From: Leucoraja ocellata
Lineage: Eukaryota
DNA length: 64,000 bases
Direction of reading: 5' to 3'
NCBI GenBank assembly: GCA_036785375.1
Contig: JAWMAR010000531.1
Location: 806,001 to 870,000, forward strand
A program made the translations under genes and the position numbers. Under the pieces are notes generated by a model, which was not told the DNA's origin, made no database searches, and saw only the letters and a program-made list of their open reading frames with translations. Below, in pieces: positions 2,518 through 29,142 of this stretch (position 1 is its first letter; every line of letters starts with the position of its first letter).

Positions 2518-2664
2518 GTAAAAGCTTTCTTGGCTGACCCATCAGCTTTTGTTGCTCCTGTTGTTGAGGCTGCTCCAGTTTCTGTCAAGGAGGAAGTGAA
2601 AGAGGCGGTGAAGGAAGAGTCTGAGGCATCTGATGACGACATGGGCTTTGGTCTGTTTGACTGA
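2518..2664 (+). CDS. RPLP0: 60S acidic ribosomal protein P0, last coding exon (upstream exons not seen in window)
   Basis: Acceptor ...tttttgtccttaag| then [48 protein letters not shown], matching the P0 C-terminus ([11 protein letters not shown]...DMGFGLFD); AATAAA at 2715-2720. Confidence 0.93.
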
Positions 2665-6004: not shown

Positions 6005-7090
6005 AGGTCAAGAGAGTTTATTGTCATGTGTCCCAGATAGGACAATGAAATTCATGCTTGCTGCCCCACAACTGAATATTGTAGGCATAAATACAGATCA
6101 GATCAGTGTGTCCATATAGCATAGAATACATATATACACACACATAAATAAACAGATAAAGTGCAATAGGCTGTTCAGAGTTTGTTTGAAGTTGTGTTTA
6201 ATAGTCTGATAGCTGTGGGAAGAAGCTGTTCCTGAACCTGGGTGTTGCAGATTTCAGGCTCCTGTACCTTCTACCTGTTGTGGCGGTAAGCGTAAGTGGG
6301 TCCAGGTTATTGTTGAGGTATGAGTTGATTTGCACCATGATCAGCCTCTCAAAGCACTTCATCACCACAGATGTTAGTGCCACTGGTCGACAGTCATTGA
6401 GGCATGTCACCTTGCTCTTCTTGGGCACCAGTATTATTGATGCCCTTTTAAAGCAGGTGGGAACCTTAGACCTCAGAAGTGAGGGGTTGAAAATGTCCAT
6501 AAAAACTCCAGCCAGTTGGTCTGCACAGGTTTATAAAACATGCCCGGGTATACCATCTGGTCCAGGCACTTTCCGAGGGTTCACTCCTCTGAAGGATCTT
6601 CTGACGTTGGCCTCTGTGACTGACCGAAATACAATCACGGCCAATGGGGGCTCAGGAAGGCACATCAGTGGTCTCCCTATCAAAGCTTGCGTAAAACGCA
6701 TTGAGCTCGTCAGGGAGTGATGCTTCGCTGACATTTGAGCTGCCTCCTGATTTCGCCTTGTAGGAGGTGATTGCATTCAAGCCCTGCCACAGTTGCCGAA
6801 CATCCATCTCATCCCCCAGCTTGGAGCAGAAGTTCCTTTTGGCCTTTTTGATGGCCTTACCAAGATTGTATCTGGACTTCTTGTAGACCTCGGTATCTCC
6901 TAACCTGAATGCCCGGGATCTGGTCTTCAGAAGAGTGCAGATCTCATGGTTCATCCAAGGCTTCTGGTTAGGAAACACTCGGAAAGATTTTGTTGGGATG
7001 CAGTCTTCCACACATTTCTTTATGAAGTCTGTAGCGACTGTGGCGTATTAATTCAGGTCCCTGAACATTTCCCAGTCTGTGAAGTTGTTC
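6005..7090 (-). mobile_element. Rex1/Babar-like LINE, fragmented
   Basis: ORF pieces [46 protein letters not shown]...RFRNSFFP; frameshifted. Confidence 0.85.
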
Positions 7091-7654
7091 CTTTGCCACA
7101 CCCCCCCCCCCCCCCCCCACTTCAGATCGCATGGAGTTGGACTCATCAGCAATGGGAAAACATAATAGAATCACAAAGCGGTCTGTATATGATGTGAAGT
7201 TTGCGATTTGTATATGATGTGAATGTTTTGATGAGTCAGAAGATAAGTTACTTCCCACAGCATACCCAGCCTATGGCCTACATAACAATCCAGAAGCAGC
7301 TACATGGTTTTCCTGAGAATAGCTTATTTTTCTTGTAAATGGTGACAGACAGGACATTTTATGATGGGGGCGAGGTGAGCTAAGCAATGATACAGGAAAT
7401 AAATTTGGAGGAGAGGTGATTAGAATCTCTGTTGATGGATTTGGTTACTGACTAGTACTGATATGACATGAACACTTGTCTGTGTAAACCTGAAAGCCGT
7501 TGAGTTCTTGCCACACATGGGAACATTATCTTATATTTTCTGACAAGCTGTGAATGAAACTGAACATTGCAGGGTAATCAGTAAACATATCCACAGCTGA
7601 CATTTTGGTGGAGAAGAGTAAGTTGAATCAGCTGAAAATAGTTGATGCTGACAA

Positions 7655-8420
7655 TAGACAATAGGTGCAGGAGTAGGCCATTCGGCCCTTCGAGCCAGCA
7701 CCGCCATTGAATGTGATCATGGCTGATCATCCACAATCAGTACCCCGTTTCTGCCTTCTCCCCATATCTCCAGGCTCTGCCATCTTTAAGAGCCCGATCA
7801 AGCTCTCTCTTGAAAGTATCCAGAGAACCGGCTCCACAGGCTAAGAATTCCACAGACTCACAAGTTTCTGTGTGAAAAAAGTGTTTCCTCATTTCCGTTC
7901 TAATTGCCTTACCCCTTATTCTCAAACTGTGGCCCCTGGTTCTGGATTCCCCCAACATCGGGAACATGTTTCCTGCCTCTAGTGTGTCCAAACCCTTAAT
8001 AATCATATATGTTTCAATGAGATCCCCTCTCAACCTTTTTGGTATTTAAATTTGGAATTTTAGAGTATACATGCCAAGCCGGTCCATTCTCTCAGCAGAT
8101 GACAGTCCCGCCACCTCGGGAATTAACCTTGTACATCTACGCGGCACTCCCTGAATAGCAAGAATGTCCTTCCTCAAATTAGGGGACCAAAACTGCACAC
8201 AATACTCCAGGTGTGGTCTCACTAGGGTCCTGTACAACTGCAGAAGGACCTCTTTGCTCCTATACTCAACTTCTCTTGTTATGAAGGCCAACATGCCATT
8301 TGCTTTCTTCACTGCCTGCTGTACCTGCATGCTTACTTTCATTGACTGATGAACAAGGACACCCAGATCCCGTTGTACTTCCCCTTTTCCCAACTTGACA
8401 CCACTTAGATAATAATCTGA
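7655..8420 (-). mobile_element. CR1 LINE 3' fragment (copy A only)
   Basis: LVRPHLEYCVQFWSP, RGDLIETY, TRGHSLRI. Confidence 0.9.
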
Positions 8421-10321
8421 GAGAACGTCCTTTACACTCTCCTTTGTGTGCAACGTGATAATGTCCAGTGGTCCCCTGGTTAACTTTTTTTGTTTTCCCT
8501 ACATTCTCATATCACCTCCCCCAACCGACCCCACCCCTCCCAGATTCCATATGCTCACTAGGGACCATTTAGAGTAGCCAAATTAATCCACAAATTTACA
8601 CGTTTTGGGGAATGTGGGAGGGAACCCGAACACCCGGAGGATACTCACACGATCCAAGATCAGGAGTGGAGCCAATTCCGCCGTGCATCAGGAAAACGAT
8701 TGATTTATTCAGCGTCAGAGACGAGAGGCGCTAATAACCGTGCAGCGAGAAACCATTCGTAGACTGTGTGGGCAGCTGTGTGGCCTGTAACGGAGGATGA
8801 TGCATCCAGACGCTGCTGTCTGTACCAAAGATCCTATCTGGTACAGACAGATCCTATCTATTTGGTACGCCAACACAGAGGCTGAATATGCATCATCACT
8901 TAAATCACTCCTTGAATGTTCCTTTCTGCAGGCGTGCCAGCGTGAGAGTGTGGTGTTAATGTGAAAGTAATCGGAGGGCATCAGCGTCTGAAAAGCTAGG
9001 AGTCGTGGAGACGCGAATAATGTTCAAACTGGCGGTGAACCTGCAGCAGTTTCACGGCGAAGGAGGTGTCGCGGCTCGTTGGGCTTCATCTGTCTCAGTA
9101 GGTGCCGGCGCATTTCTGTCTCGGGTTGTTGGTCCTTAAGGCTAAAACTGTAACGTTGGTGGATGTGTGGGTCAGTCATCAGGAGAGGATGGCAATGGCA
9201 CGCGTCCTTTCATTTTACCTTTTAAGGCGGGGAGTAGACCAAAGATCCCATAGGGGAGGATCCTATCGCAATAGGATCTTTGGAATAGACTGCATTTCCA
9301 GACCAGTCTTCAGAAGGACTCGCTATCCTCCTGCTGCATTAACGCAGCGGGTCAAGCAGCATCAAGGAGATAAAGGATGGGTGATATTTCGGGTCTGGAC
9401 CCCCCCCCCCCCCCCCCTACTCCTCATCCCCTCGGCTGCTCTTCCAGTGAAAACTAACTTGCATCTCTCTCTTCCCCAGTTCTGGCGAAGGATCGCAAGC
9501 CCGGAAGATTTTTCTTTCTACAGACTACGACCACCCCCCCCCCCCCCCCCCCCGCAGGAGATTATGTTTTTGTTTCAGATTTGCAGCATCTGCAGGTTTT
9601 GTTTTGTTTTTAATAAATTCTCTCTCAGTTGGGAGCGTAACTATAGCGTCAGCTCAGAGCTCACTATCCGAAGGGCAAGGTGATGTTTAATTTACACTAA
9701 TGTTGTTGCTCATTGATTCGGGCCAAGTTAACGTGAAGCCATGGGGTCAATCACAAGACAGCAATGCCTCCGTGTAGAAGCGCGGCCACAGTCGATACAA
9801 GTCTCTCTCTCAGGTGATCTTTAATCTCGGCACCTCAAGTTCCTCAGATGTTCAGTCATGTCGCTGAGAACTGGTCATGCAAAGCTCATCAGTGGTTTCC
9901 CGGACCAGTGTGAGCCACTTTACCGATTTAATTAAAAATAACAGAAAATACTGGACATGTTCAAGTCAATCACAATATTTGCAATGAGACACAAAACAGG
10001 AACGCTGAAACTTTTGATCTTTTATCAGAACTGAAAGGCAGATTTAAAGGAATTACAGATCAAAATAACGGCGACGGGAAACAGCGAAGGTTTGGCAGAG
10101 GATGTCCTGAACATGACGGCGCACACAGCAAGGTAACTTACAGCGAGGTTCTATTTCTAAACCCGCAGGTTCCAACTAATCCGCTACTTCAGCTATTTCT
10201 AACTGCTGATTTCGGCATCCATACTATTTTGCTTCGGTGGTGAAAGTTTTGTCGGAGACGGCGACCAACAGTCACAGTGACTGCGATTTACAGTTACTGG
10301 ATGCAGGTTGTCACAACGAGC

Positions 10322-10432
10322 CTAGATTTTTCCTTTAAACTGCGGCTGAGAATAAACGACAGGTACTTGCTCTCCATCGCAACTCTGTGTTTGGGGGCTG
10401 GCTTTGCAAAATTTCAGAATTGAATATTGTGC
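10322..10432 (-). CDS. Receptor A terminal coding exon
   Basis: tttcctatatttccag| AQYSILKFCKASPQTQSCDGEQVPVVYSQPQFKGKI*; YxxL and a further VVY motif. Confidence 0.8.
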   Translation of the reverse strand, partial: AQYSILKFCKASPQTQSCDGEQVPVVYSQPQFKGKI

Positions 10433-13400
10433 CTGGAAATATAGGAAATATAGATAGCAGATTAATTGTCCTTAGAATGTTTACAATTATGATGTTAGTA
10501 ATTACTCTACACATTGCAGTAAATCCACTTGACTTTAACCTGTAATGTCGCGGTAAGCAGGTTTTCAAACAATGTTAACTTTATGTCAATGTTAGCTTTA
10601 AAATAGGTCTGCCCTTTTCTCATTAATCATAGATTATATTTCACAACGCCATATTTCAGTTCATCGAGAAGATGGGGGCTCACCGAGTAAACCCATCCCA
10701 CCGCTAATTTCTCAGTGGCATTTTCTTCCCGCATTCCAATCAACGTCCCCCCCTCCCAGATTCTACCACTCACCTGCAAACTGGGGGTAATCTACAGCGG
10801 CACTGGAATCCTTGGGATCTGTGTGGGAGCACCTGGGGGAATCCCTTTGCCTTCTTGGGGAGAATGGGGAAAAGTCCTCACATGCAGCGTGGACAGCAGT
10901 GTTGCTCAGGAGTTAGACACAAAAAGCTGGAGTAACTCAGCGGGACAGACAGCATCTCTGGAGAGAAGGAATGGGTGACGTTTCGCGTCGAGACCCTTCT
11001 GCAGTTGCACCGGAGTTGCTGGAGCCGCGAGGCAGCAACTCTCTTGGAGCCATTGGGGTTGGACTAGGACTTCCCTTGGGACAATTATCTTTAATTGTTT
11101 GTTTTCCAGTACAGCCCGTGTCGTTGGATGTCTGCCCGAATACATTGTCATGTAGTTTGAAATACACTTTTTTGTTTTGTTTTTACAGCATACCTGCTCT
11201 GTTGAATTATTGATGGTCTTTACCGTCGCAAAATCGGAATAAACGACCTGTGAATCTGCAATCTGACGGATTTCCGCGTATGTTGTAGAAGACGTATTCG
11301 TATATACACCAGGTCCTGAAATATCCTTTGGGAAACAAGAGAGTTAACTTCACGAAACTCAATAACTACATAGAAACATGGAAACATAGAAAATAGGTGC
11401 AGGAGTAGGTCATTCGGCCCTTCGAGCCTGCACCGCCATTCAATATGATCATGGCTGATCATCCAACTCAGTATCCTGTACCTGCCTTCTCTCCATACAA
11501 GGGCCACAAGGGCCACATCTAACTCCCTCTTAAATATAGCCAATGAACTGCCTTCTGTGGCAGAGAATTCCAGAGATTCACCACTCTCTGTGTGAAAAAT
11601 GTATTTCTCATCTCGGTCCTAAAAGATTTCCCCCTTATCCTCAAACTGTTCTGGAGGACCAAGATAAATGTTGAATCATATAACCGTATAACAATTACAG
11701 CACGGAAACAGGCCATCTCGGCCCTACAAGTCCGTGCCGAACAAATGTTTTTTTCCCTTAGTCCCACCTGCCTGCACTCATACCATAACCCTCCATTCCC
11801 TTCTCATCCATATGCCTATCCAATTTATTTTTAAATGATACCAATGAACCTGCCTCCACCACTTCCACTGGAAGCTCATTCCACACCGCTACCACTCTCT
11901 GAATAAAGAAGTTCCCCTTCATATTACCCCTAAACTTCTGTCCCTTAATTCTGAAGTCATGTCCTCTTGTTTCAATCTTCCCTATTCTCAAAGGGAAAAG
12001 CTTGTCCACATCAACTCTGTCTATCCCTCTCATCATTTTAAAGACCTCTATCAGGTCCCCCCTTAACCTTCTGCGCTCCAGAGAATAAAGACCTAACTTA
12101 TTCAACCTATCTCTGTAACTTAGTTGTTGAAACCCAGGCAACATTCTAGTAAATCTCCTCTGTACTCTCTCTATTTTGTTGACATCCTTCCTATAATTGG
12201 GCGATCAAAATTGTACACCATACTCCAGATTTGGTCTCACCAATGCCTTGTACAATTTTAACATTACATCCCAGCTTCTCTACTCCATGCTCTGATTTAT
12301 AAAGGCTAGCATACCAAAAGCTTTCTTTACCACCCTATCTATATGAGATTCCACCTTCAAGGAACTATGCACGGTTATAGGAACTATGGACGGTTATAGG
12401 AACTATGCACGGTTATATCAAGATAAATTGTCCACAATCTATGAGAGAAAAGTTAGAATTCGTACCTTCACAGTTTGCTTTGTTTAAATATAATATCATG
12501 TTATCAAATGGAACAATTATTTTCATTCCGCATGTAAATTTCTGCCATTTTATCGCTGCTTTCCCCTAAATACCTTAATTACCAGAATATCAATTACTCT
12601 TTTCTCTTTGCACAAACCAAGGTCGAATAGATTCTAACACCTCCTTGTATCCTCAACATTTATTTTTTCCAATACTAATGTCGCTAATATGGCTTGCCCA
12701 GTCTAGTTGCTTGTCTGATTTTTCAATGGCCTTTTCTCCAATCAGATGTGATCGCTGACCATGGAACTTCGCAAGGCGCAGCGATAAGCAGTGGATGCTT
12801 TGAATTTGACTTGAACATGACACTACTTTCAATCGAAGTGTCATGTTCCTAAAAATTATGGAGAACAACTAAAACAGTGGGGGAAAAAACAACGATTAAA
12901 CACCTTTTGGAAAGTACATGTCATTTGTTTGCACTAATAACATATGGTGCGTAAAGGGACGTAAATTGTGCAGTTACACTACCTCCAGTACTGTTCCAGG
13001 AGTCGAATCACTGTGCACCATTAACCGTTTTCCTATAATTACAAAATAACCAAGCATTATTTCAAGTGACATGTTGTCATTGTGTCAAGGCTGTAAATAT
13101 AATCACAATGAACTACAGGTGCTGTTTTACACAAACTGCTGGACTAATTCAGCGGGACAAGCAGCATCTCTGGAGAACACTATGAACATAGAATTATCCA
13201 AGGTAATTACCCTTTCAAGATTCAAGATTCAATAGATTTACTAGAATGTTGCCTGGGTTTCAGCAACTAAGTTTCAGAGAAAGGTTGAACAAGTTAGGTC
13301 TTTATTCTTTGAAGTGCAGAAGGTTAAGGGGGGACTTGATAGAGGTTTTTAAAATGATGAGAGGGATAGACAGAGTTGACGTGGAAAAGCTTTTCCCACT

Positions 13401-16400
13401 GAGAGTAGGGAAGATTCAAACAAGGGGACATGACATGAGAATTAAGGGACTGAAGTTTAGGGGTAACATGAGGGGGAACTTCTTTACTCAGAGAGTGGTA
13501 GCTGTGTGGAATGAGCTTCCAGTGAAGGTGGTGGAGGCAGGTTCGTTTTTATAATTTAAAAATAAATTGGATAGTTATATGGATGGGAAGGGAATGGAGG
13601 GTTATGGTCTGAGCGCAGGTATATGGGACTAGGGGAGATTATGTGTTCGGCACGGACTAGAAGGGTCGAGATGGCCTGTTTCCGTGCTGTAATTGTTATA
13701 TGGTTATATGGTTATTATATGGTTAATAGAGTTTATTGTCATGTGTCCCAGATAGGACAATGAAATTCTTGCTTTGCTTCAGCACAACAGAATATAGAAG
13801 GCATGAATAGAGAACAGATCAGTGTGTCCATATACCATTGTATAAATATATACATACATGAATAAATAAAACAGATAAAGTGCAAATAAACAGATAATTT
13901 GCTATTAATGTTCAGAGTTTTGTTTGAGTTGAGTTCAATAGCCTGTTGGCTGTGGGTAGGAGCTGTTTCTGAATCTGGACGTTGCAGTCTTCAGACTCCT
14001 GTACCTTCTACCTGACGGTAGCGGGGAGATGAGTGTGTGGCCAGGATGACGTGGGTCCTTGATGATGCTGCCAGCCTTTTTGAGGCAGCGACTGCGATAG
14101 ATCCCCTCGATGGTAGGGAGGTCAGAGCCGCCTCCCCCTTCTCTTCCCACACCTCTACTGTACCCCACCTGGTCCCACATCTATTTTTCTCCTCCCCCTT
14201 CCCCTCCCCCTCCTTGTACATTATTTCCTCTGTCTCCACAATTCGCAACTCTTCAATCTGTTCTACTCACACTTTCTATTCTAATCCCCGGCCTTTGTTC
14301 CTACCAGGTATCAAGCCGTGCCTCCACTGATTACCTGCAATGCTTTGTCCCGTCTCCCCTCTCTTCCTGCTTCCCCCTCTCCTACAGTCAGTCTGAAGAA
14401 GGGTCCCAACCCGAAACGTCACCTATCCATGTTCTTCAGAGATGCTGCTTTGATCCACTGAGTTACTCCATCACGTTGTGTCCTTTTAGCACAAACATCT
14501 GATTATTTTATATAGATTGCAAATATTGCACAGGAGGGGACGACTTGATTATTGGAGTGAAGACACTAAGTCCTGCGATATGAACACATAAAGGAATTAT
14601 TATAACAGTTTGTTTTAGGATTAGTAAAATGTGGAACTGAGAGTAAACTGAGATTTTCTGAGAACTTATTTTTGTTTTTGTTACTTTGAAATCTTTGCAA
14701 CAGGAATGCCCCTGTCCCACTTAGAAAACCTGAACGGAAACCTCTGGAGAATTTGTGCCCCACCCAAGGTTTCCGTGCGGTTCCCGGAGGTTTTTGTCAG
14801 TCTCCCTATTTGCTTCCACTACCTGCAACCTCCGGCAACCACCTGCAAACTCCGGGAACCGCACGGAAACCTTGGGTGGAGCGCAAAGTGTCCAGAGGTT
14901 TCCGTTCAGGTTTCCTAAGTGGAACAGGGGCATGATACACACTTTCACGCATTTTAGTTGCCATATTTGAGCACATTGTTCTACACATACGATGGGCCAA
15001 ATTGGGTACTCATTGCTGTACACTTCTATGATTCATTTCCCTGTTTGAAATTGATCGCCAACACTGTCAATTTTACCTTAATAATTTGTTGATGAATATT
15101 ATATATTCAGAGTATATTCGTTATTTACAGCGGAAAATTGACGCAAGCCTCTTAAGTTGGCGGTGAAAGCTTGATACTCACGTTTTACCTTCCAACAGCT
15201 TACCGCTATGAAAATAATGACAAATATCAGGAGGCAAATCAGCGGATAAAGCCACGAATGTAGTTCTTTCCGGTAAACAGGAAGTTCTTTCCGGTAAACT
15301 TTGAAAGAAGTGTACAAATATCAGGGTTAATATTTATAGGAAACTATAATTGGCACGTTTTACTGAAAAGTAAAGGAGTAATATGTGCACTCCCGGAGAG
15401 TTACTCACACTACACCTGCATCGTTTTGAGATCCTTTACAATATTATATATGTAATCAAACTTAAAATGCCGAGGTTTAGTATTTTCTCGTTATATTCGA
15501 CCGTTTCGCTTCTCGGCGGAAGTGCTTTCCATTTAAATTCCACAAGTTGATATATTTTTTAAAGACAGCGGAAAGATGAGTTTCTTGATGTAGAAAATTG
15601 ATCAACTGATATCGCAAAACACGTTTGGCCGTCAGTGTGTATAACGGGGAGTTCCCGCCGATGTAAAATTGGCTGCCGAAGGCTCGGAGTCTTCACGTGG
15701 AACTAGAAGTTGACAATATTTTACAATGCACCAGTTATGGAATTCAGGTAAATTGTGAATCAAAACGTGTAGAATTTAGCCAAAGTTGCTTCCTGACCTG
15801 CTGAGCATTTCCAACATATTTCAGATTTTCTGCATCTGCAATATTTTGTACAAAATTATCATAGGGCAAGATCACCCGATTTGTGTAATTACTAATGCCC
15901 CTGTCCCACCTAGGAACCCTGAACGGAACGGTTCCCGGAGGTTTTTGTCAGTCTCTCTACCTGCTTCCACTACCTGCAACCTCCGGCAACCACCTGCAAC
16001 CTCCGGGAACCGCACGGAAACCTTGCGTGGGGCACAAAGTCTCCAGAGGTTTCCGTTCAGGATTCCTAAGTGGGACAGGGGCATAACGTTTGCGGTTGCA
16101 TTACGTTTCTTGAATAAACTGCAGTGACTTTTTGAAAATCAAAAATTCAACTGCAACAAACCGAGTAAAATCAAAATGGTTCAACTATACTGTGTTTTTT
16201 TTAAATTTTTATAGAGAATTGAAGATTCTCATTCTCGATAACAAATGATCTCGGGTCGGGAACCATGTCAATCCAAGTTACAGATATATAGATGTGGTCT
16301 GATCTGCAATCACCAACATCGTTAACTTTCTTTAAAACAGGACAATACAGGACCTGAACAGCCCCCTCGGCCTACATCGTATGTGCCGAACATGACACCG

Positions 16401-17621
16401 ACCCTTATTTGCTTGCACACAATCCATATCCCTCCTTTCCATGCTTATCCAAGTGCCTTTCCGCACAATTTCCGTCGTTCCAGGCACTCCCCGCCCTCTG
16501 TAACTTTTCTTTTACCGCTCACATCAACTTTAAACTTTCCCCTCTCAAAGCACAAACAGAGCAGCTTTAATACTTCTAAATTCTCACACTGATCAAAAAC
16601 ATGATGCCAAACTCTAATTCAATATAACTGTCATAGAAACGTTGCTCACCCGTTTGTATATCTACCGATCAGGTAACAATATTTAGGTTACAAAATGATG
16701 CGTTTAACTATACTCGGGTGTACAATTACACAAATGCCAACTATCAAATGAAGTCGACGTGAAGCAGAATATTTTGAGATTATCTACATTGATCTTCTAA
16801 ACCAGTTGCAAGACGAACATTTCCACATGTTGTATCCATTTTTTCTTTCTATCTCCTTCGAAGTCTATATTTCTTTTTGTGGGGACATCTATTTTGCAAA
16901 TGCTGCTTAGTGTTTAATGTTCACCAGTACATTTCACCCTCGAGGACAATCCCACCAACATCTTCCCACACTCGGGTACTCACAACGCCCAAGAGAGTTA
17001 ATTTCACGAAATTCAGTAACTAGGTAATTAGGGAGCAACAATCCCGCTGGCACTCAACCCCCCCCCACCCCCCACTAAATCGCGAGCCGCTGCTGTTGCC
17101 CAGTGGCATCCCTGTCCAGGTTGTTTTGCTAGGATCAGGAACTGAAGGCAGCTGTTCAATTGATTTAATTTGAATTTAATTATGAATAATCGCATAATCC
17201 TACCTGTTACCATCAATAGGCTTCCGTTGCCGTTGAAGCCCCGAGTGGAGGGCGGATTCAACGTAATCAATTCACAGTAATATGTGCCGCTGTCTTCTTG
17301 CTGAAGATTTTTTATCGATAATTGGCTTCTGTATAAATGTTGGTCCCTAGTAAATTCTAGCTCGAAGGAACGGAGTACTTTGGATTTGTTCATGTAAATT
17401 ACGTAGGTCTCATTACTTGCATTGCTTGATTCACGAAACCAATTGATTACCAAGTCGTGGATTTTATCAATTGAAACGACACAGTTCAGCTTCGCTGTTC
17501 CTCCTTCAGACACTGTGAGTTTACTAGGAGTCTGGTAAACCAGCATTTCGTCATTAACAATCAGTGACCAGGCAGTGCAGAAAGTCCACATATAAAAATA
17601 TATAAATGTATCGATTTTCAT
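10322..17621 (-). CDS. Single V-J-type Ig-domain type I receptor, copy A (CD28/CTLA4/PD-1/NKp30-like architecture, long tyrosine-motif tail); 5 coding exons, 275 aa
   Basis: Exons 17621-17204, 15298-15182, 13032-12983, 11325-11194 and 10432-10322 all have GT-AG borders and compatible phases (1,1,0,0); 828 nt, open to TAG. Small extra exons cannot be excluded. Confidence 0.8.
11194..11325 (-). CDS. Receptor A cytoplasmic exon 2 (YxN, ITSM, ITIM-like)
   Basis: cttgtttcccaaag| DISGPGVYTNTSSTTYAEIRQIADSQVVYSDFATVKTINNSTEQ |gtatgc; 132 nt, phase 0-0. Confidence 0.82.
11681..12416 (-). mobile_element. CR1 LINE 3' fragment, copy A-specific insertion
   Basis: LYSLERRRLRGDLIEVFK ORF; the empty site in copy B reads tgttgaatcaagataaattg (~37938-37957). 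Confidence 0.88.
12983..13032 (-). CDS. Receptor A cytoplasmic exon 1
   Basis: ttttgtaattatag| (R)KRLMVHSDSTPGTVLE |gtagtg; 50 nt converts phase 1 to phase 0 as required and supplies the basic stop-transfer cluster; same length in copy B. Confidence 0.7.
13237..13724 (+). mobile_element. CR1 LINE 3' fragment, copy A-specific, TSD aataga
   Basis: RGDLIEVFK ORF, (ggttatat)n tail, aataga on both sides; absent at ~38750 in copy B. Confidence 0.88.
14707..14932. mobile_element. Harbinger/PIF-like MITE (copy B: 40147-40359)
   Basis: TIRs tgcccctgtcccactta / taagtggaacaggggca; internally palindromic. Confidence 0.8.
15182..15298 (-). CDS. Receptor A exon: stalk + transmembrane
   Basis: ttctttcaaag| VYRKELPVYRKELHSWLYPLICLLIFVIIFIAVSCWKVK |gtgagt; 117 nt, phase 1-1; uncharged hydrophobic helix. 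Confidence 0.85.
15896..16083. mobile_element. Harbinger/PIF-like MITE with TAA TSD (copy B: 41327-41514)
   Basis: taa-tgcccctgtcccac...gtgggacaggggca-taa. Confidence 0.85.
17204..17621 (-). CDS. Receptor A exon: leader + V-set Ig domain
   Basis: MKIDTFIYFYMWTFCTAWS...VYQTP...LNC...WFR...LSIKNLQQEDSGTYYC...FNGNGSLLMVT; canonical Cys, Trp, DxGxYYC and a J-like GxG strand; phase-1 donor ACAG|gtagga. Confidence 0.9.
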
Positions 17622-17699
17622 GTTTACGAGACGCTACTGCGGGCAGACAGGTTTGCATTAGCAGTGGTTTGCCAGAGCTACCGGAGTTTGAAGACTGAA

Positions 17700-17797
17700 G
17701 TCTGAAGAAGGGTTTCGGCCCGAAACGTTGCCTATTTCCTTCGCTCCATAGTTGCTGCTACACCCGCTGAGTTTCTCCAGCATTTTTGTGTACCTAC
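17700..17797 (+). repeat. Dispersed short repeat matching the Penelope 3' region (related copies ~1578, 10915, 14390, 28170, 43160)
   Basis: gtctgaagaagggtttcggcccgaaacg...gctgagtttctccagca recurs and is part of the Penelope insertion. Confidence 0.75.
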
Positions 17798-18804
17798 CAT
17801 AGTTTTTTGCAGACACAAGGAACTGAAGATGCTAGTTTACAAAAAAAACGTCACAGAGTGTTGGAGTAACTCAGTGGGTCAGGCAACATCTCTGGAGGAC
17901 AAGAGTTTGAAGCGACCGGTTACTGTTCCCCTTTCACAGTTCGGCCGGATGTGGGGTGTGCAGAACTCGACGCTCTGCAGAGCCATGCCGCTGTGGGTTC
18001 TGAAAATAGCTGTCGCCCAATAGAAGCAGAAACGCAGAACCAAGTGTTATCGGAACGCCTCGCCTCTGCGCCGAAAACCAACACCTTAACTCGAGCATTG
18101 CTGCGCTTGGCATTTAAGGTGTGATTTTCTTCAAACCAGCCTACGCTGAAAATAAGAGGAGACAATCTAATAAGTTAAACGTGTAAAATGAATTCAGCGA
18201 AACAAAGGCTATCAGTGATCAGCGAACAAACCTTAATTTGATCAAATCCAATTCAGTCGTAGTGTCGGAGGAAACTGCAGATGCTGGTTTAAACAGAAGA
18301 TAGACAGAAACTGCTGGAGTAACTCAGCGGGGCAGAGATGCTGCCTGTCCCACTGAGTTACTCCAGCATTTTGTGTCTCTCTGAAGTAGTGTCCTTCTGA
18401 TCCCGGTGTTCCAGGAAGAAACAGTCCCTGCATCTGGAGGTATGCGTTTTCACACGTCTGTACGTCTTGCCTGATGAGAGAGACGGGAAGAGGGGTTGTC
18501 CGGGGTGAGACTGGTCTTTGGGGTTGGTTGGGGACATGCCGAACCTCCTAAAGCCTTCTAAGGAAGTTGAAGCGCTGGCGTGCTTTCGTGGCCATAGCTG
18601 CTATGTGACTGGTCCGGCACACATTGCTGGTGATATTTATTCCTATGAACTTGAAACTTGGAACCATCTCTACTTCGGCGGTGCGTGTGCGTGTGCGTGT
18701 GCGTGTGCGTGTGATCTCCTTCCTGTATTCCGTCTGGTAATTATTTGATATCCGGTCCACAAATGCCTCCGCAATTGTAAATTGAGTTGGATTGGTGTTT
18801 GGCT

Positions 18805-18880
18805 GTGCAGTGTAGTGCAGTGTAGTGTAGTGTAGGGCAGTGCAGTGTAGTGTAGTGTAGCGGGGGGGGGGGGGGGGGGC
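18805..18880. repeat. (GTGTA/GTGCA)n pentamer microsatellite + poly-G
   Basis: Visible directly; much longer in copy B (44275-45012). Confidence 0.95.
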
Positions 18881-19376
18881 TGAGAACTCATCCTTATGGG
18901 GCATCAGTGTTGAGGATTATGGTAGTGGATGATTGGTCACCTATCCTCACAGATTGTGGTCTGCTGGTTAGGAAGACTAAGACCCGTTTGAAGTGGGGAG
19001 TGCTGATTCCGTTCCATTAGTTTGGAGATGAGCTTGCTTCGGCTAATGGTATTGAAAGTAGGGCTCTAGTATATGATGTAGGTGCTCGTCTCATCCAGAT
19101 GTTCTAAGGACAAGTGTAGGGCCAGAGAGATGGCATCAGCAGTGGACCTGTTGTGGAATTAGACGAACTGCTGTAGATCAAGGCTGCTTGATAGGCTTAA
19201 TCTGGCTGCTCTAAAAGCAATTCGTAATGGTGGATGTCAAGACATGTGGACAGTAGTCATTAAGCATGAGGTTTCGATTTTCTTTGGCATCGAGGTGATA
19301 GTGGTCTTCCTGATGCATGTCGGTACCTCAGAATTAATTCCCGGTCTACATCTAGACCAGTCCTATTTACTATAAA

Positions 19377-20417
19377 TAGGTATGTTACAAAACCTACCTG
19401 AATCGTGGCTGAGCATCTGCCCTACCCCGTGTCCGCGATTTTGGCGCTGTTTAGAGGGGGCGGGTTTAAAACGCGATTTTTACTAGGCTGTTCCAATCGA
19501 AAATGTTCAGCCTAGTAAATCATTAACGGAAAATCGCTGAAAGACCCCGTCGCAAAAGGTATTATTAGTTTTTATGGCCTTGTATAATATTTATAGTAGT
19601 TTAAAAATCACTCTCTTACTCCGCAACCTCTCGCAGCCCCAGGGTTTTATAAAGCAAACAATTAAAGGTATGTACCTTATTTTTACATTAAATGGGGCTT
19701 GTAGAATAACCCTGTGTATAAAGTTTTCTATAGCGAGTAGTTCATTTTGGGCTCTTTATATCCCGCAGTATTTTTCTGGGCATTTGAGGGCACAAATCCA
19801 GCGCAGTGTGAACGTTCTAAACCAGCGCGTTCACAGGAACCCACTAGAAAGCCGATTTAAATTGACTTTAATTTACAGCAAATGAACACTAAATTCCTTC
19901 CATTTGGCCTATAAATTGATGTCAATGAGATTTAAAAATCATGTTTTATTGTGAATTATTTGTGAATATTATTTGGACACTTGGGCTATTTAAAAATGTT
20001 AATCATTTATTAAGAAATGGATAGATGTTTAGAGCTAGTAATTGAAGTTTGAAATTAGCTACAATTGGGTAACTAACTAATTATATGCTTTAATTTCAGG
20101 TCATCCAAGTAAGATTATTTTATATTTGTTTCAGAATGCTTCAATCTATGATAACTGAAAATTTCATTCAGTTCTCTTCATTTTTAAGAAGGTTATGGGC
20201 TTTTGACTGTCCACGATCACAGCTTTTTTGTTATGTCCATAGAAAATCAATAGGGAACAAGATGCTAATTTCCGAGTATGAAAATGGCCATAACTTTTTT
20301 TATTAATTGAGATATGAAAGTGAATTAGGTGTCAAATTAAACTTATTGTTATGCTTTATCTGATGGGATAAATTGCAGACTTGATTTTTTAAATCTCAAA
20401 ATTTTGTAACATTGCTA
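19377..20417. mobile_element. Non-autonomous DNA transposon (copy B: 45511-46549)
   Basis: Imperfect TIRs taggtatgttacaaaa / ttttgtaacattgcta, flanked on both sides by ctataaa; no long ORF. Confidence 0.7.
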
Positions 20418-21399
20418 CTATAAAGAGAAAGATCTATGATGTTTTGAAGATCTACATTGATATCCTACACCCAGTTGCAAGTCGAACATATCCATGCTTT
20501 GTCCCCATTTCCCTACCCCCCGCGAGGCTTCCTTTGCGTTTGATGGGCGACGGGTATTTTGGGAATACTGGTCAGAGTTTAGTGTTTCATCAACGGGGTA
20601 TTCCTCAACCTCCATACGAGCTTGGATATTTGGCCCAGCAAGCTCCTGCCGTCACATCTCCGCGGCGCCACGTGGTTTATTTACGTACACACAGAAATGA
20701 CAAGGGACATTAATCTTGCTGATAATCCCTCCCCCACAAACCCCTATTCGCCAACGACATCTCTTCCCAGAGAATTCCAGAGATTTGGGATTTGCCAGGT
20801 GAAGACTGACGCCAATAATAAAAATAGTTAAGTCCAGGGATGCTTTTAGGTCAAGAATTTGAGTCCTTCTGCACATTCCAGTTGATATATTCTTTGTGTC
20901 TGATCAGTTATTTATTATAATTTTTCCTCCTATTGAGGTAGGCAGTCTGATGAAATGAGTAATGGGGATTTCAATGAAATTAGGCGAGAATCGAATTATA
21001 GAACTATATATTTTAAAGTTGGTTCAAATTTCACCAGTTGTTATATCCATCATATACTGCATTTACAACTCATAAGTCTGTGTAACAACCTGGGAGCTCT
21101 CGTGCAAATTCTCATTTGTTCTGCAATTTGGTTGACATCAGGAAGAAAACCCAGAGGGAAATATCCCTCATCCCCGGTTAAATGTAATTTCACATAAGAA
21201 ATGGTAGTACAAGTCTTCCATAATATTACGTAAATAAATGATTGGAAGGATTATGAAATTGCATTTATTTGAATGCAGATCATTCATAAATAACAATATA
21301 ATTGGGAACAATTCCAATGCTTATATGATCACAAGTGGATGGATTGCAGTTCACAACCGCTGGTTCTTGATTCTGCTACTCTGGGTAAAAGAGTAGGTT

Positions 21400-24335
21400 A
21401 CTATAACCAAAATTAAATCAGAGAAAGGCGAATTACTAATACTACCTAAAAATATTAATAATAGATTTGCCCAATTTTACCAAAACTTATATACATCTAA
21501 AATTAAAATAGAAGATAGTAAAATAAAAAAAATTCTAGATAACTGTAATCTTCCAATACTGGACCTTTTGGAACAAGAGGGACTAGGAGCTTAAATTACA
21601 ATCAAAGAAATAGGTGAAACAATAAAATCGCTGAAAAATGGTAAGACACCGGGACCAGATGGTTTTAATAATTAATTTTATAAAAAATTTCAGGAGATAA
21701 CGACCCCTTATTTATTTAATTTATACTCCCATGCTTTTAAAGAAAACAAACTACCTGAAACACTAACAGAATCAACTATTACACTTATTCCAAAAAAAGA
21801 TAAAGATTTAGAAGATCCGGGCTCGTACAGAGCTATATCACTTTTAAATACAGATCAGAAAATTTTAGCAAAGATTTTAGCAAGAAGATTAAGCAAATAT
21901 ATTAGTAAATTGATAAACCCTGATCAAACGGGGTTTATACCTAAAAGATACTCATTTAATAATCTGAGACGCCTGTTTAATATAATGTACTCGCATAAAG
22001 TAGAGGAAGACGATATATCAATTATTTCTTTGGATGCAGAGAAAGCATTTGATCAGGTAGAGTGGCAATACTTATATAAAGTAGTACAAAAATTTAATAT
22101 GGGAGAGAATTTTATAACATGGGTAAAATTATTATATGATAAACCGATGGCAAGAATTTTAACTAATAACATGTTATCTCAAAAATTTCAACTATCAAGG
22201 GGTAATAGGCAGGGATGTGCACTATCACCCCTGCTATTTGCCCTTATGATAGAACCCCTGGCTGAAAGTATAAGAATTCATCCGAATATTCAGGGCTATA
22301 ATACCAGGGACTCAAAGAATAAAATCTCATTATATGCATACGATACACTTTTATATATTACAAAGTCACAAACAAGCATACCAAATTTATTAAACTTAAT
22401 AGAGGAATTTGGGTCTTTTTCTGGATATAGAATAAACTGGAACAAAAACGAAATCATGACATTAAAACCTCAAGAACCTATACACTTATTGAAGTTCCCC
22501 TTTAAAATCGCAACAGAAAAATTTAAATATTTAGGTATTCAGATTACTAGAAAATATAAAGCATTATTCAATGCTAATTTCATACCTTTATTAAATAAAC
22601 TTAATACACGGATTAAATTTTGGAAAACACTTCCCTTATCATTATTAGGTAGAATAAATGCAATAAAAATGATCTTCCTACCACAATTACTATACCTATT
22701 TCAGTCTATACCGGTATATATACCAAAATATTTAAAAAACAAAATTAGACTCTAACATTACAAATTATATTTGGGACTATAAATCACATAGAATCACAAA
22801 AAAACACTTATGTAAACCAAAAGAGGTCGGGGGACTTTCACTTCCGAGTTTTATGTATTATTACTGGGCAGTGTATATTAAGAATATGATTTATTGGTTG
22901 GATAGTTCTACCCAACAGACAGAATGGATAAAAATGGAGAAGGAGGATTGCCATCCTTGTAATATAGGAACGATCCTCTTTTCCCCCAAAAAATTGAATA
23001 ACACAATATATAAGAAGAACCCAATTATATATGGTACAATAAGAATTTGGAAACAAATAAAATTATCTTTAAAATTAAGAAATCTATCACTGTTAATGCC
23101 AATAGCGAACAACCCTTTATTTAAACCATCTCTTATTGATAAGACATATAACCAATGGGAAAGTCTCGGAATTAGAAGGATCAGGGATATGTACGAAATG
23201 GGAAACCTACTATCATTCCAACAACTACAATTAAAATTTAAATTGAAAAACAACTAATATTTTAAATATCTTCAGATTTGCGACTTTGTGAAAAAATATA
23301 TACAAGGATATCAAAAAGTAACTCCTGACTTATTGGAAGAAGCAATGAATATTGAAGCTGACTCACAAAAATTAATATCCTATTTATATAATAGTATTCT
23401 AAATATAGACCTACCATCGACAGAGGTACTTAGAGAAGAGTGGGAACGGGAATTAATGATAAAAATTACGAAGGTTAAATGGGAAAAATACCTGATATAT
23501 ATTCACAAATGTTCAATTAATGTAAGACATAATCTAATTCAATTTAAAATTGTACATAGATTATATTATTCAAAAACAAGATTGAACAAATTTTATCCAA
23601 ATATATCCGCCACTTGTGATAAATGTCTAGCCCAAAAGGCAACTATAACACACTCCTTAGTTTCCTGCATAAAACTTTATAGATTTTGGAATGATATTTT
23701 TGAAATACTTACAAAATTATTCAAGACAAGAATGGAACCTAATACTGAAATGATTATATTTGGTGTAATGGAAGATGGGAATAAATTGAACACATCTCAA
23801 AATCTATTCTTTAACTATGGTTTAATAATAGCAAAAAAATTAATACTTAAATTTTGGAAGGGTACATCAATACCAACGCTTAAAATGTGGATTGCAAGTA
23901 TGTTGGACACCGCTCATCTTGAGGAAATGCGATTCCTCCTAATGGATAAATCAGACCAATTCATAACGAGTTGGTCTCCATTCGTCGTTTTTTTTGGAAT
24001 CATATGGTGCAACACAATTGTAAAAAATAACTGTTTCAGGACTGGACGAGGGTTGGTCAAGATTATAAATAATGATCTCCTTTTCTTTTTTATTTTCTTT
24101 TCTTTTCACTATTTTCTCTCTCAACTTTCTTCATTTACTCGTTCTCTTTCTTCACACACTATATATTTCACACCTTTCTATCCTTTACTATCTAACTTAT
24201 TTTTCTTATTCTCATCTTTTTTCAATGTAACAAAAAAAAAAGAAGTTGTACATAAAATGTATTATGAAAATATATATTAGGCACTTTGGTGCCATATGAC
24301 TGTACTTACTTCTAATAAAATAAAATATTTAAAAA
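21400..24335 (+). mobile_element. L1/Tx1-like LINE, 5'-truncated and disrupted
   Basis: RT motifs DQTGF, LDAEKAFD, RQGCALSPLLF, catalytic YADD decayed to YAYD; CDKC..H..C zinc knuckle; stops, frameshifts, A-rich tail. Confidence 0.92.
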
Positions 24336-25519
24336 AAAGAGTAGGTTTAAGGTGGGAGATGAATGATTTAATAGGAACCCGAGGCGCAGCATTTTCGCAC
24401 AGAGATTGGTATGTGGAACGAGCTGCCACAAGAGGTAGTTCAAACAGGTACTATAACAATATTTAATACACATTTGGACACGTGCATTAATAGGAAAGGT
24501 TTAGAGGGATACGGGCTTCGTATCTTCGAGTAACCTTTCATCCTGCATGATGTGGCGCTGCATTCGACGATGTTCTGTGGTCCCTGCAGTTATCTTGCTC
24601 TTAGATGCTGAACCAATCCAAAATAGTGACATAATCTGCAGCACCTTTGGGATATTTACAGTTCTTGTCATTTATGGGGAGGCAAATGCAAACTGCTTGA
24701 TGAGTAAATGCTGGTATTGCCCAAATGTTCGTCTCTGTGCCGTGCAGTCTTGCAACAGTAGGTGGCAGCATTGCATCGGTTATGAAATAATGTTCATTGA
24801 TTGCGGAGATGGGACAAATGGTCAATTATCATTGTCTAGTCAAGTCAAGTCACATTTATTGATATAGAACATTTAAAAAACAACTCTCGTTGGCCAAAGT
24901 GCATTACATTTGTTATAAGAATAGCACAACAAAACAAAACAAAACAAAACAAACTACATACATACATGTAGCAATATTACGATAATGTGTAAGCCCATAA
25001 ACCCATCTAATGCCTAGTCATTTGGCGATTATGGGTGTGGATGCGAATATACTAATTGAGGAGCGGCTTTAACCTTTGACACATGACAGTAAAAAAGACG
25101 GAGGCAATAAAGTTACTGAATGCTCAATTGCACTTGGAGAAACAAACACAAAATATGTTTCCTCTTATGTCCAATTTATAGTGACATAGTCTTAAAAAAA
25201 GAGTTTGGATAAAATAACATACAAGCAGCTCGCACTGAGTAAAGGCGGTAATAGAAATCGACCTTTTGATATCTTTGCTTTTGACCGCGTGGGCAGAAGA
25301 TACTGATGCAGTCTCCGATTATAACGGTAGGTGGCGCTGCCGTACCTTACATCTGTGATGAAGCTCAACGCGGCCAATTCTGAAATAGGTCAAACGCAAT
25401 ATTGTGTCTGAGGTCACGTACAGGCCAGACCAGCAATAATTGGATTATTTTCCCCTTGAAGGATATATTTGGGATCCAGTTGTATTGTAATAATCAATCA
25501 TACACCATGAACATGAAAA

Positions 25520-26218
25520 CTTTAGGAGCGCACATCATCCGAGGACGTACACTCCATTGAGGATGAATGGGGATCCTGTGGATAGGGTGAACTGTTTTAA
25601 ATATCTGGGAGTCCACATCTCCGAGGATATGACATGGGCATCACACGCCTCAGCATTCGCGAGTAAGGCAAGGCAGCGCCTTTACCACCTCAGGCAATTG
25701 AGGAAATTCAGAGTGTCTCCGAGGATCCTACAGTGCTTCTACGCAGCGGCGGTTGAAAGAAACGTGTCCGGGAACATTACCATCTGGTTTGGGAATTGCT
25801 CTGCCAAGGACAAGAAGGCTCTGCACTTCACTTGCCCCCCTGCAGGAACTATACATCAGGAGGTGCAACTCCAGAGCCAACAATATCATGAGAGACCCCT
25901 TCCACCCCTGCAACGGACTGTTCCAGCTGCTACGGTCAGGCAAACGCCTCCGTTGCCATGCGGTGAGAACGGAGAGGTTGAGAAGGAGTTTCTTCCCAGA
26001 GGCCATTCGGACTGTAAACGCATATCTCACCAGGGACTAACTCTACTGAACATTTTTCCTTCCATTATTTATTATGCAAAATAATATGTGTGTTATGATA
26101 GTGTTTATAGTTTGTTTGGTTGTTTGTCTTTTGCACAAAAGTCCGCAAGCATTGCCACTTTCATTTCGCTGCACATCTCGTATGTGTATGTGACAAATAA
26201 ACTTGACTTGACTTGACG
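25520..26218 (+). mobile_element. Rex1/Babar-like LINE 3' fragment (copy B: ~51640-52408)
   Basis: FKYLGVHISEDMTW...KARQRLYHLRQLRKF; (cttga)n tail. Confidence 0.85.
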
Positions 26219-27187
26219 TTTTTTTTTTGAAAGATTACAGACATTTAACAGAATTTATATTCCACATCTTCCCTGTTGAAATATGTCTGGTTATGTGTCT
26301 GCGTTCGTAGTGATGTGATTTCGGTTTGAAACCATTGCTTATCTTCACTTCCTTCACCTTTGCAGGGAGCGAATAGGAGGAATCTTTCACTGCATAAAGA
26401 TATTCTTCTTTCACAGTTTTCCGATTCAGCCACGGTTTAACCAAAGCTTGAAAGGTAACCTCTCCGCTTACTCGATACTTCGTTCTTTGAAACCCCACAT
26501 ATATCACAGGTTTTTGCTCATTACTCTGTCATATGCTGAGATAATAGAGCATCTAGGCTTGTACACTCTGAAGGAATAGAGGATATCTCATTGAAACATA
26601 TACGATTGTTAAGGGTTTGGACACGCGAGAGGCAAAAAACATGTTCCCGATGTTGGAGGAGTCCAGAACCAGGGACCACAGTTTAAGAATAAGGAGTAAG
26701 CCATTTAGAACGGAGACGAGGAAATACTTTTTCTCACAGAGAGTGGTGAGTGTGGAATTCTCTGCCTCAGAGGGCGATGGAGGCAGGTTCTCTGGATGCT
26801 TTCAAGTGAGAGCTAGATAGGGCTCTTAAAAATAGCGGAGTCAGGGGATATGGGGAGAGGGTGGGAATGGGGTACTGATTGGGGATGATCAGCCATTGAT
26901 GCTGACATTGCTGACATTGTAATCTCTGGAAATGTTCACCCCACCCCCGGTTTAATGTCATCCCTCTATTTGTCTATACCTTAAATTGTCATATTAATAT
27001 CTTGTTCAGTGTCGAGCATTATCCCGTGCGGTCCTGGGAAGCTTTCTCTTCAAACTGTAATCTAATTATAAGCTGTTGCCTAAATGCAAGTCGGCAGTTA
27101 ATACTCTGAGATTGAAATAGCGGGAATTGTTCTGCAATTAAGGCAAAACTTAATTTAAGATGTAACACATCTGTTTTTGTCCTTAAG

Positions 27188-27334
27188 GTAAAAGCTTTCT
27201 TGGCTGACCCATCAGCTTTTGTTGCTCCTGTTGTTGAGGCTTCTCCAGTTGCTGTCAAGGAGGAAGTGAAAGAGGCGGTGAAGGAAGAGTCTGAGGCATC
27301 TGACGATGACATGGGCTTTGGTCTGTTTGACTGA
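27188..27334 (+). pseudogene. RPLP0: Orphan duplicate of the RPLP0 last exon
   Basis: [48 protein letters not shown]; acceptor and AATAAA intact; only ~290 nt of the upstream intron was co-duplicated. Confidence 0.85.
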
Positions 27335-27525
27335 AAAAAAAGCAGCTACCCATTGTAGCACGGCTAATCAATCAGCCTAACCAAAATAAACCATTTTATT
27401 TACGGAAACCTGTAGCTTGTGTGTTCATGTTTTAGTTTATTCATGTCTGTTTTTAACTTGTGGCTTTTATGCAATTTGAGTCTATTTTGTGTGAGATGGT
27501 TAGTAAGTAGCTGCTTAATCACAGT

Positions 27526-28305
27526 CGCCACATCTTCCAATCTCCCCCCATGTCTGCCTTCCGCAAAGACCGTTCCCACCGCAACTCCCTTGTCAATTCT
27601 TCCCTTCCCTCCCGCAGCACCCCTTCCCCGAGTACTTTCCGTTGCAACCGCAAGAAATGCAACACCTGTCCCTTCACCTCCCCCCTCGACTCCATTCAAG
27701 GACCCAAGCAATCGTTCCAGGTGCGACAAAGGTTCACCTGCATCTCCTCCAACCTCATCTACTGCATCCTCTGCTCTAGGTGTCAGCTGATTTACATCGG
27801 GGAGACTAAGCGTAGGTTGGGCGATTGTTTCGCCGAACACCTCCGCTCAGTCCGCAGTAACCAACCTGACCTCCCGGTGGCTCAGCACTTCAACTCCCCC
27901 TCCCATTCCCAATCCGACCTCTCTGTCCTGGGTCTCCTCCGTTGCCAGAGTGCGCAACAGCGGAAATTGGAGGAACAGCACCTCATATTCCGCCTGGGGA
28001 CCTTGCGTCCGGATGGCATTAACATTGAATTCTCCCAATTTTGCTAGCCCTTGCTGTCTCCTCCCCTTCCTTAAACCTCTAGCTGTCTCCTCCCACCCTC
28101 CTATCCGCCCGCCCTCGGGCTCCTCCTCCTCCCTTTTTCCTTCCTTCTCCCCCCCCTCCACCCCCCATCAGTCTGAAGAAGGGTTTCGGCCCGAAACGTC
28201 GCCTATTTCCTTCGCTCAATAGATGCTGCTGCACCCGCTGAGTTTCTCCAGCAATTTTGTGTACCTTCGATTTTCCAGCATCTGCAGTTCCTTCTTGAAC
28301 ACAAA
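27526..28305 (+). mobile_element. Penelope-like element fragment with GIY-YIG endonuclease, copy B-specific
   Basis: ORF 27550..28047: C..C..C, NLIYCILC..C..IYIGETKRRL...EH; 14-bp TSD tgcttaatcacagt at 27512-27525 and 28306-28319. Confidence 0.9.
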
Positions 28306-29142
28306 TGCTTAATCACAGTATCTGTCACATGCTGTAAATGTCGATCAGTGACGGGCAGCGGTGATCACTGCTGACAGTAAACTCAGGCTATTCACCCTGA
28401 GTGCTCAGAACAGGAGTTTCCCCAGCAGTAATGTGGATGTATAACCAGTTTGCATTTGAAAGCTGGCTTTACAATGTAGAATGCATTTAGTGTTCAATTT
28501 GGAAATAAATAATACTACAAAAATATTCAACAAGCCAGGCAGCATCTGTGGAGGGAAATTGATAGGCATGTTTCAGGTCCAGACCTTCGAGTCTGGGGAA
28601 CGGTCTTGACCTGATAAATCTTTCCATTTCCCTCCATAAATGCTGCCTGGCCTGCAAAATTTCTCCAGCACTGTTTTTTGCTCAAGATTCTAACATCTGC
28701 AAACTCTTGTGAGTAGGTAAATATTAACATGGAATTTGGCTAGGGTGTGATATAACTTCTAGATAAAGGTAAACAATGCCGAAAATATACTTCATATGAA
28801 TTATGTTCTAACAGAATTGAAGTGCATCAATGTAAAATAAATGGTAATGTGGGACACAGCCATAAATAGATGTTTATCGGAAATATTGACTGAGTTAATT
28901 CTTTATCCAGGGTAACGGAGGGAGGTTGTACTAACCAGGGTAATGAAAATTAAAATGCACTAGAGAACACGTTCAATGGCATCAGGCCTATTGTCTGATA
29001 TTAATAATATATTGACTAAACAGAGTGGTTCTGTGCCTAATTAAATGCTCTGTAGCTGTAAGTCACCACTCTTCCCGAGGCCCGACTGGAGAATGAGGTT
29101 ATAAAACCCGTTCAAGCTACAGCCAAGAAAGCAAGCCAACAT

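Follow-up and report, generated by a model that had tools for sequence, protein, structure and literature searches.

What kind of gene carries an immunoglobulin V domain with its J-like strand already joined in one exon, at the edge of an array of immunoglobulin light-chain genes? The question is raised by an exon on the minus strand of the window, i.e., the whole stretch of 64,000 nucleotides of Leucoraja ocellata DNA analysed here. A first-pass annotation had described there a CD28/CTLA4-like FG loop, four N-glycosylation sequons and a V domain sharing one exon with a J-like strand, all of which are present in 17621-17204, and had proposed a single-V receptor of the CD28/PD-1/TMIGD2 type, a proposal that is now backed by the architecture, the FG-loop pattern, the tail motifs and the nearest relatives. 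In the reading favoured here (probability about 0.85) the gene encodes an unnamed inhibitory receptor of the CD28/PD-1 family. In what follows, the five-exon gene opening at 17621 (minus strand) is called the focal gene, and this gene together with its cartilaginous-fish relatives the focal group; C531 is the contig holding the window, and other C-numbers denote other contigs of the same assembly.

An intact receptor gene and its damaged copies

Exon 1 opens a gene of five exons, all intact, that encodes a membrane receptor with a single V domain. The features of the window are the following:

17204..17621, minus strand: exon 1 (coding), predicted signal peptide and VJ-type Ig V domain in a single exon with a phase-1 donor
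15182..15298, minus strand: exon 2, short stalk (a 7-residue unit occurring twice) and transmembrane helix; phase 1 to 1, canonical AG/GT, aligned with the transmembrane segment of the orthologue
12983..13032, minus strand: exon 3, short juxtamembrane segment; phase 1 to 0, aligned with the orthologue
11194..11325, minus strand: exon 4, tail with Y203 (VYTN, a YxN), Y211 (TTYAEI, an ITSM) and Y224 (VVYSDF)
10322..10432, minus strand: exon 5, tail end with Y242 (AQYSIL), Y266 (VVYSQP) and the stop codon
36361..43082, minus strand: second, broken gene copy, with its V exon at 42664-43082
2239..53105, no strand: tandem duplication of ~25 kb carrying both window copies (self-blastn; 2239-26899 against 26909-53105, mostly 95-98% identical)
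2518..2664, plus strand: last exon of RPLP0, a synteny marker (Pfam Ribosomal_60s), with Ribosomal_L10 exons upstream at C531:801-805 kb
58678..61838, plus strand: first germline-joined lambda-like Ig light-chain VJ-C cluster (Pfam V-set and C1-set; lambda chains among the PDB matches)

The frame of exon 1 runs uninterrupted from the ATG at 17621 to a phase-1 GT donor at 17204 on the minus strand and reads YYCELITLNPPSTRGFNGNGSLLMVT. Its V domain contains the sequons NAS (67), NET (70), NKS (78) and NGS (132), matches the Pfam V-set family (E=4.9e-16; 59.3 bits against a cut-off of 26) and is modelled by AlphaFold as a V-type sandwich with a mean pLDDT of 75. A signal peptide is predicted within this exon and aligns without gaps to the N-termini of the relatives; across the entire exon, leader included, identity with Hemitrygon XP_072911515 is 57%, and P124, G131 and G133 are invariant in 11/11 aligned rows. 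A rearranging antigen-receptor segment was considered and rejected: the focal V splices to a transmembrane exon, there is no linked C1 exon, and a scan of both strands over 16900-17900, tolerating up to one heptamer and three nonamer mismatches, found no recombination signal sequence, in agreement with what had been noted earlier from the letters.

The Hemitrygon protein served as guide to exons 2-5; its tail matched exon 5 in tblastn at 50% identity (E=1.8e-7). Two earlier candidates, a final exon near 10540 and another exon at 14572, gave way to the exons that this orthologue revealed. All introns are GT-AG with matching phases, and the product is a type I receptor of 275 aa that is 47% identical to XP_072911515 from start to stop (130/277 columns). 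The transmembrane helix (hydropathy peak of 2.9 at residues 156-174) contains no charged residue; a cysteine early in this helix, found in the focal gene and in most relatives, might support a dimer. The tail has five tyrosines, and TTYAEI is a strict ITSM. Contigs of run X1 (possibly the source sample) show 0 differences from exons 2-5. One run-X4 contig (RNA by guess) aligns from 3 bases ahead of the exon 5 acceptor onward, preceded by 49 letters that do not align; no joint with exon 4 is present among the matches listed, and this contig was not counted as expression.

The second window copy is damaged by one extra base in the leader, which brings a stop at codon 24, a 3-base deletion in the transmembrane exon and an 8-base deletion in exon 4. 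The same two-copy layout has been found on C384, which is probably the other haplotype because paxillin exons are repeated there. The near C384 copy has a stop at codon 77, and its transmembrane exon was not found; the far one keeps the V and transmembrane exons, and the 8-base deletion, common with the second window copy, cuts its tail at residue 230. Only one of the four copies in the assembly, the focal one, is thus intact, three being broken or truncated, and the locus may therefore be in decay in this skate. Frameshifted LINE reverse-transcriptase frames also occur in each half of the duplication (21676-24277 and 47529-50149); at ~27188-27334 the duplication has left an orphan copy of RPLP0's last exon.

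Relatives in cartilaginous fish

A homologue search with the focal protein returned one protein among 126 candidates, Hemitrygon XP_072911515, and no match when limited to near-equal length. With the Hemitrygon protein as query, a search of 1.84 billion representatives gave 288 matches at E <=0.001, and seven of the best 10 of these 288 are the same gene in Pristis, Heterodontus, Carcharodon, Chiloscyllium, Heptranchias, Cetorhinus and Callorhinchus. The relatives thus come from seven other elasmobranchs and one chimaera. The RefSeq models (Hemitrygon XP_072911515, Pristis LOC127579543, Carcharodon LOC121286045/47, Callorhinchus XP_007906700 and others) are 37-58% identical to the focal gene over the exon and represent the same gene, modelled by pipeline and without a name; all are database models, and their source labels read 'uncharacterized' or, for the chimaera, PD-1-like. 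A literature search, with subscription papers mostly outside its coverage, did not find the accessions or gene names of the relatives and matched only 'CD28HL3' (PMC11599192); neither these accessions nor the loop strings sought appear in 9 supplements of that paper or 6 of PMC12151841. The passages considered of PMC12227049, in which the interest of single-exon VJ genes near antigen-receptor loci is stressed, are silent on the focal gene. This is a real and unnamed gene conserved among cartilaginous fish, and it probably fills a stated gap.

The tails of the relatives are more regular than that of the skate. In 6/6 full-length relatives the first tail position reads YAT[LV] and the last YSx[LVM], and the focal-group tail is therefore inhibitory in type; the first position is a strict ITIM or ITSM in 5/6 of them, the sixth having a strict ITIM further on. 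In the focal skate gene the first motif is now YxN, an ITSM has been gained, and the last motif has no hydrophobic residue at +3.

Probable placement within the CD28/PD-1 family

The CD28 family has been defined, in the parts of PMC11599192 considered here, by an IgV-TM-intracellular layout with a single V, a motif in the CDR3 region and tyrosine motifs in the tail. The focal gene shows a single IgV-TM-tail layout, a Pro-rich FG loop with GxG, and tyrosine motifs in its tail. Several known members are excluded as its identity, namely PD-1, CD28H and CD28HL1, each of which has its own gene in this genome: PD-1 on C331/C438 (matching thorny skate PD-1 XP_032887962), CD28H on C1120/C6 (with a loop identical to that of the little skate row in the portion of Data Sheet 4 of PMC11599192 examined) and CD28HL1 on C228/C436. 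The earlier suggestion of a lineage apart from CTLA4, PD-1 or TMIGD2 accordingly holds for PD-1 and CD28H/TMIGD2; for CTLA4 the comparison is one of motifs. CD28, CTLA4 and ICOS were rejected in that way, as none of their three marks (a P-[P/L]-P loop, YxxxxT in the transmembrane segment and a YxNM/YVKM tail) occurs in the focal gene model (0/3), from which both YESF and the transmembrane YxxxxT are absent.

The resemblance to other members is partial in each case. The focal gene is like PD-1 in its single V, in a transmembrane exon that ends in phase 1, after which comes a short exon of phase 1-0, in an ITIM/ITSM-type tail and in an NW in strand C. It differs from PD-1, which is without PP and GNG in the FG loop, both present in the focal gene, and which has its own locus and a leader not fused to V. 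In fact, the V exons of skate PD-1, CD28H and CD28HL1 each have their own acceptor, whereas the focal leader and V form one exon. CD28H/TMIGD2, CD28HL1, CD28HL2 and CD28X share the YxC..PP..GxG loop pattern and the IgV-TM-tail layout, but the first two and CD28HL2 have an E-I-P CDR3 motif that is absent in the focal gene (the skate EIP genes lie on C1120, C228 and C271), and CD28X combines a YxCx6PPPx4/5GxG loop with an EYEDM tail; the spacing of the focal loop fits this pattern but the loop reads PPS, and there is no YEDM. As a separate observation, a V exon at C271:841 kb (L078:1471-1875) has a loop, YHCEVLVEIPPPV..., almost identical to that given for white shark CD28HL2 in Data Sheet 4 of PMC11599192, in the passages of which considered here CD28HL2 is reported as not found in rays. 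A comparison with sheet 3E suggests a mix-up in Data Sheet 4 between sterlet and gar CD28HL3: both rows have the gar loop, with accessions and tail motifs swapped.

The closest named candidate, missed by the first-pass annotation, is CD28HL3, which according to the passages considered of PMC11599192 (Quiniou et al. 2024) was not detected in Chondrichthyes and is known in bichir, gar, sturgeons, carps and catfishes. The 'separate lineage' of that annotation becomes only one of two readings, because the focal gene shares the linkage group of CD28HL3. As far as these passages describe it, CD28HL3 resembles the focal gene in its single V, transmembrane segment and paired ITIM-like tail motifs, the last near the C-terminus, in equal FG-loop length with Pro at position 10 and GNG, and in the ancestral linkage group (gar LG20, bird chr15, human 12q24.23). 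Its loop motif as given there, YxCxxxxx[I,A,V,L]P, is not found in the focal group, which has N, D, S, A or T before the Pro (N in the focal gene), with L one place earlier in the focal loop; the paired ITIM/ITSM is present in kind in the relatives and partly degenerate in the focal skate gene. By the same partial account, CD28HL3 also differs in having two tail tyrosine positions, against four conserved in the focal group, in a distal spacing of 27-61, against 16-18, in a V identity of 27%, and in its neighbours prkab1/tmem233/pla2g1b, which are not beside the focal gene in this assembly.

The V-domain tree comprised 50 rows, i.e., the focal gene, 10 other V exons of the genome and 39 proteins, mostly single-V, chosen by hand among the search matches; multi-domain matches were left out, extraction gave no domain for one row (P0131), CD28HL3 was represented by 5 sturgeon/paddlefish rows, and named references for CD28, CTLA4, ICOS, NKp30, CD79, NITR, SIRP, MDIR, BTLA and CD300 stand outside it. 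Eight rows, the focal gene and 7 relatives, form one branch (94/90) with the chimaera outermost and with no bony-fish or tetrapod protein among the 50 rows inside it; deeper forks are weak. The unconstrained tree does not join the focal group to sturgeon CD28HL3. In AU tests, a clade of these two (p-AU 0.35), one of the focal group with PD-1 (p-AU 0.40) and one of the C276 gene described below with CD28HL3 (p-AU 0.53) were not rejected. Mean identities of the focal V are similar throughout, at 26-29% with the CD28H-like groups, bird PD-1 and CD28HL3: 27.0% with sturgeon CD28HL3, 26.9 with bird PD-1, 27.2 with shark CD28HL1 and 28.8 with skate CD28H. Therefore, sequence alone does not assign the focal gene.

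A competitor for the name CD28HL3 exists in the same genome:

C276:1059 kb (L071:1468-1998) and 1392 kb: unnamed single-V gene in two copies 333 kb apart

When sterlet CD28HL3 (LOC117973280, a member of the set in the part of PMC11599192 considered) was compared with the genome (116 candidates scored), this gene came first with 45.8 bits, the focal gene being the second-best distinct gene with 31-34 bits. The C276 gene is 30.5% identical to CD28HL3, shares with the sturgeon proteins a CEVxRxxPxP loop and a CYAxL ITIM, and has a double ITIM (ICYAKL and TVYSPV) in its last exon; its neighbours, legumain-like, tetraspanin-like and Smoothened exons, are not CD28HL3 markers. A profile comparison of the focal-group tails with CD28HL3 gave 0-6 bits only, and unrelated ITIM tails score higher. 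Sequence thus favours the C276 gene as CD28HL3, and position favours the focal gene.

The order along C531 is AIFM3, LZTR1, SIRT4, CTU1, PXN, RPLP0, the focal gene twice and the light-chain array, in which at least 23 germline-joined lambda-like VJ-C clusters (23 joined VJ and 23 C exons, in several subgroups, two inverted) occupy C531:865-1170 kb; RSPH14-like exons lie at the far end of C384. Domain families were verified for RPLP0, PXN, a BTB exon, CTU1 and a sirtuin, while the names AIFM3, LZTR1, SIRT4, CTU1, RSPH14, BICDL1, CIT, SLC2A11 and MSI1, with their human positions, are presumptive. RPLP0, PXN and SIRT4 presumably lie inside the human interval given for CD28HL3. C102, not C531, carries BICDL1, CIT, a sugar-transporter cluster, a PLA2 cluster and MSI1; its CIT-PLA2-MSI block (C102:100-560 kb) showed no V exon motif, and no PRKAB1 was seen after CIT. 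Searches for AMPK-beta and CD225 gave no match on C531, C384 or C102, which does not prove absence, and the genome search turned up a single AMPK beta gene (C267:843-855 kb), which we take to be PRKAB2. A search for the GCN1 family gave no match and carries no weight, and four 10-kb samples of C384 contained no Ig exon motif. In the passages considered of PMC11599192, CD28HL3 is placed beside prkab1b, pla2g1b and tmem233, with a human interval of chr12:119.33-120.34 Mb, and on LG20 in gar; none of the markers prkab1, pla2g1b and tmem233 was found on C531/C384, and neither PRKAB1 nor TMEM233 could be located. Gar LG20 has been paired with bird chromosome 15 (PMC8040251, in the part considered) and carries a C-lambda pseudogene (PMC5985310, likewise). 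The focal gene is therefore in the right neighbourhood for CD28HL3 by RPLP0, PXN and SIRT4, with identical position not proven.

Two further observations concern these contigs. On C102 (428-471 kb and 245-407 kb), seven clustered calcium-loop exons of secreted phospholipase A2 lie by at least four sugar-transporter copies, which we assume to be SLC2A11-like. On C531, 463-577 kb and 587-701 kb form a duplication of ~115 kb with 98-99% identity, over LZTR1-like, sirtuin and CTU1-like genes, that is either real or an assembly effect.

We put the chance that the focal gene is the cartilaginous-fish orthologue of CD28HL3 at about even. A somewhat more tentative reading is a separate, tenth lineage of the CD28/PD-1 family, possibly an old PD-1 paralogue, restricted to cartilaginous fish and acting as the same brake, with CD28HL3 being the C276 gene or absent. 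Bird PD-1 finds the focal gene first in the genome (33.4 bits, against 30 and 29 for skate PD-1), and HMM searches give the same order, which would fit an old PD-1 paralogue. PD-1 clusters also rank 2 and 3 in the Atlas feature search, whose top cluster, si:dkey-52l18.4, could be tied to no family, and the chimaera relative is annotated as PD-1-like. The AU test rejects neither a union of the focal group with PD-1 nor one of the C276 gene with CD28HL3, no bony-fish or tetrapod protein falls within the focal branch, and the fused leader-V exon is unlike skate PD-1, CD28H and CD28HL1. Against this stand the marks of PD-1 in the passages considered of PMC12151841 (Y68, K78 and a sequon at N116), in place of which the focal gene aligns F/L, T and no sequon. 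Furthermore, under this reading only chance would place the focal gene in the CD28HL3 linkage group, and the C276 gene does not lie by CD28HL3 markers.

A receptor of another VJ-type inhibitory family (NKp30-, SIRP-, NITR-, BTLA- or CD300/MDIR-like), its CD28-like FG loop reflecting shared ancestry or convergence, seems unlikely. Among non-members, the focal-group HMM scores highest with cartilaginous-fish V-C1 receptors (66 and 64 bits), and the named references of this alternative stand outside the 50-row tree. Fold searches are unspecific: the PDB sequence search with the focal V returned antibody V domains only, Foldseek and VIA-align matched V-set domains in general and singled out no family, TCR V, VNAR, CD8, PD-1 and CD79b fall within ~2 Z units, and CD28, CTLA4 and NKp30 chains are absent among the rows listed, an absence that does not exclude them. 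However, the focal gene has no C domain, its single V, transmembrane segment and tail are arranged as in the CD28 family (in the parts of its description considered), and its YxC-x6-PP-x-GNG loop is the CD28H/CD28X pattern, combined with a transmembrane helix free of charge. Its location also differs from the MHC, LRC and CD300 clusters as we assume them to lie, which was counted against such a family. Far less probable still is a displaced or degenerate piece of the adjoining germline-joined lambda array, or a non-functional relic, as might be suggested by a joined VJ exon ~41 kb from the first lambda cluster and by the damage in 3/4 copies. Identity to the adjoining light chain is 22.7%, the gene has its own transmembrane and tail exons and an intact frame, relatives extend from chimaera to rays, and the run-X1 contigs agree with exons 2-5.

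Possible function and significance

By analogy with PD-1 biology, as presented in the passages considered of PMC12151841, and with BTLA as a further analogue, the focal receptor is likely a PD-1-like inhibitory co-receptor. Its glycosylated V domain would bind a cell-surface Ig-superfamily ligand through the FG loop and the GFCC' face; the ligand is likely a B7 relative, because the CD28 family binds B7 relatives; both the PD-L1 contact residues and the EIP motif are, however, missing in the focal V. Phosphorylation of the tail would be the work of a Src-family kinase; SHP-2/SHP-1 would then dock on the ITSM (TTYAEI) and the YxxL motif (AQYSIL) and weaken signals from the antigen receptor. Of the conserved ITIM positions, the first is a YxN in this skate, a possible Grb2 site, and the last lacks the +3 hydrophobic residue, so that the brake would rest on the two middle motifs.

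The gain is one of comparative immunology, with no new mechanism shown. If the focal gene is CD28HL3, the one CD28-family member that had been reported as lacking in Chondrichthyes occurs there after all, in chimaera and rays alike; every lineage known so far would therefore go back to the first jawed vertebrates, and sharks would have, next to PD-1, another ITIM/ITSM brake. Otherwise, the family gains a further ancient inhibitory member. A more specific and rather doubtful version of the latter is a tenth checkpoint receptor of sharks, rays and chimaeras only, lost in bony vertebrates, with its fused leader-VJ exon at the edge of the Ig lambda locus; such a VJ gene would have kept its linkage to an antigen-receptor locus without rearranging, and would have given the earliest adaptive immune systems a second brake of the PD-1 type. 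Either way, a conserved and testable checkpoint gene is named for which databases hold only 'uncharacterized' entries.
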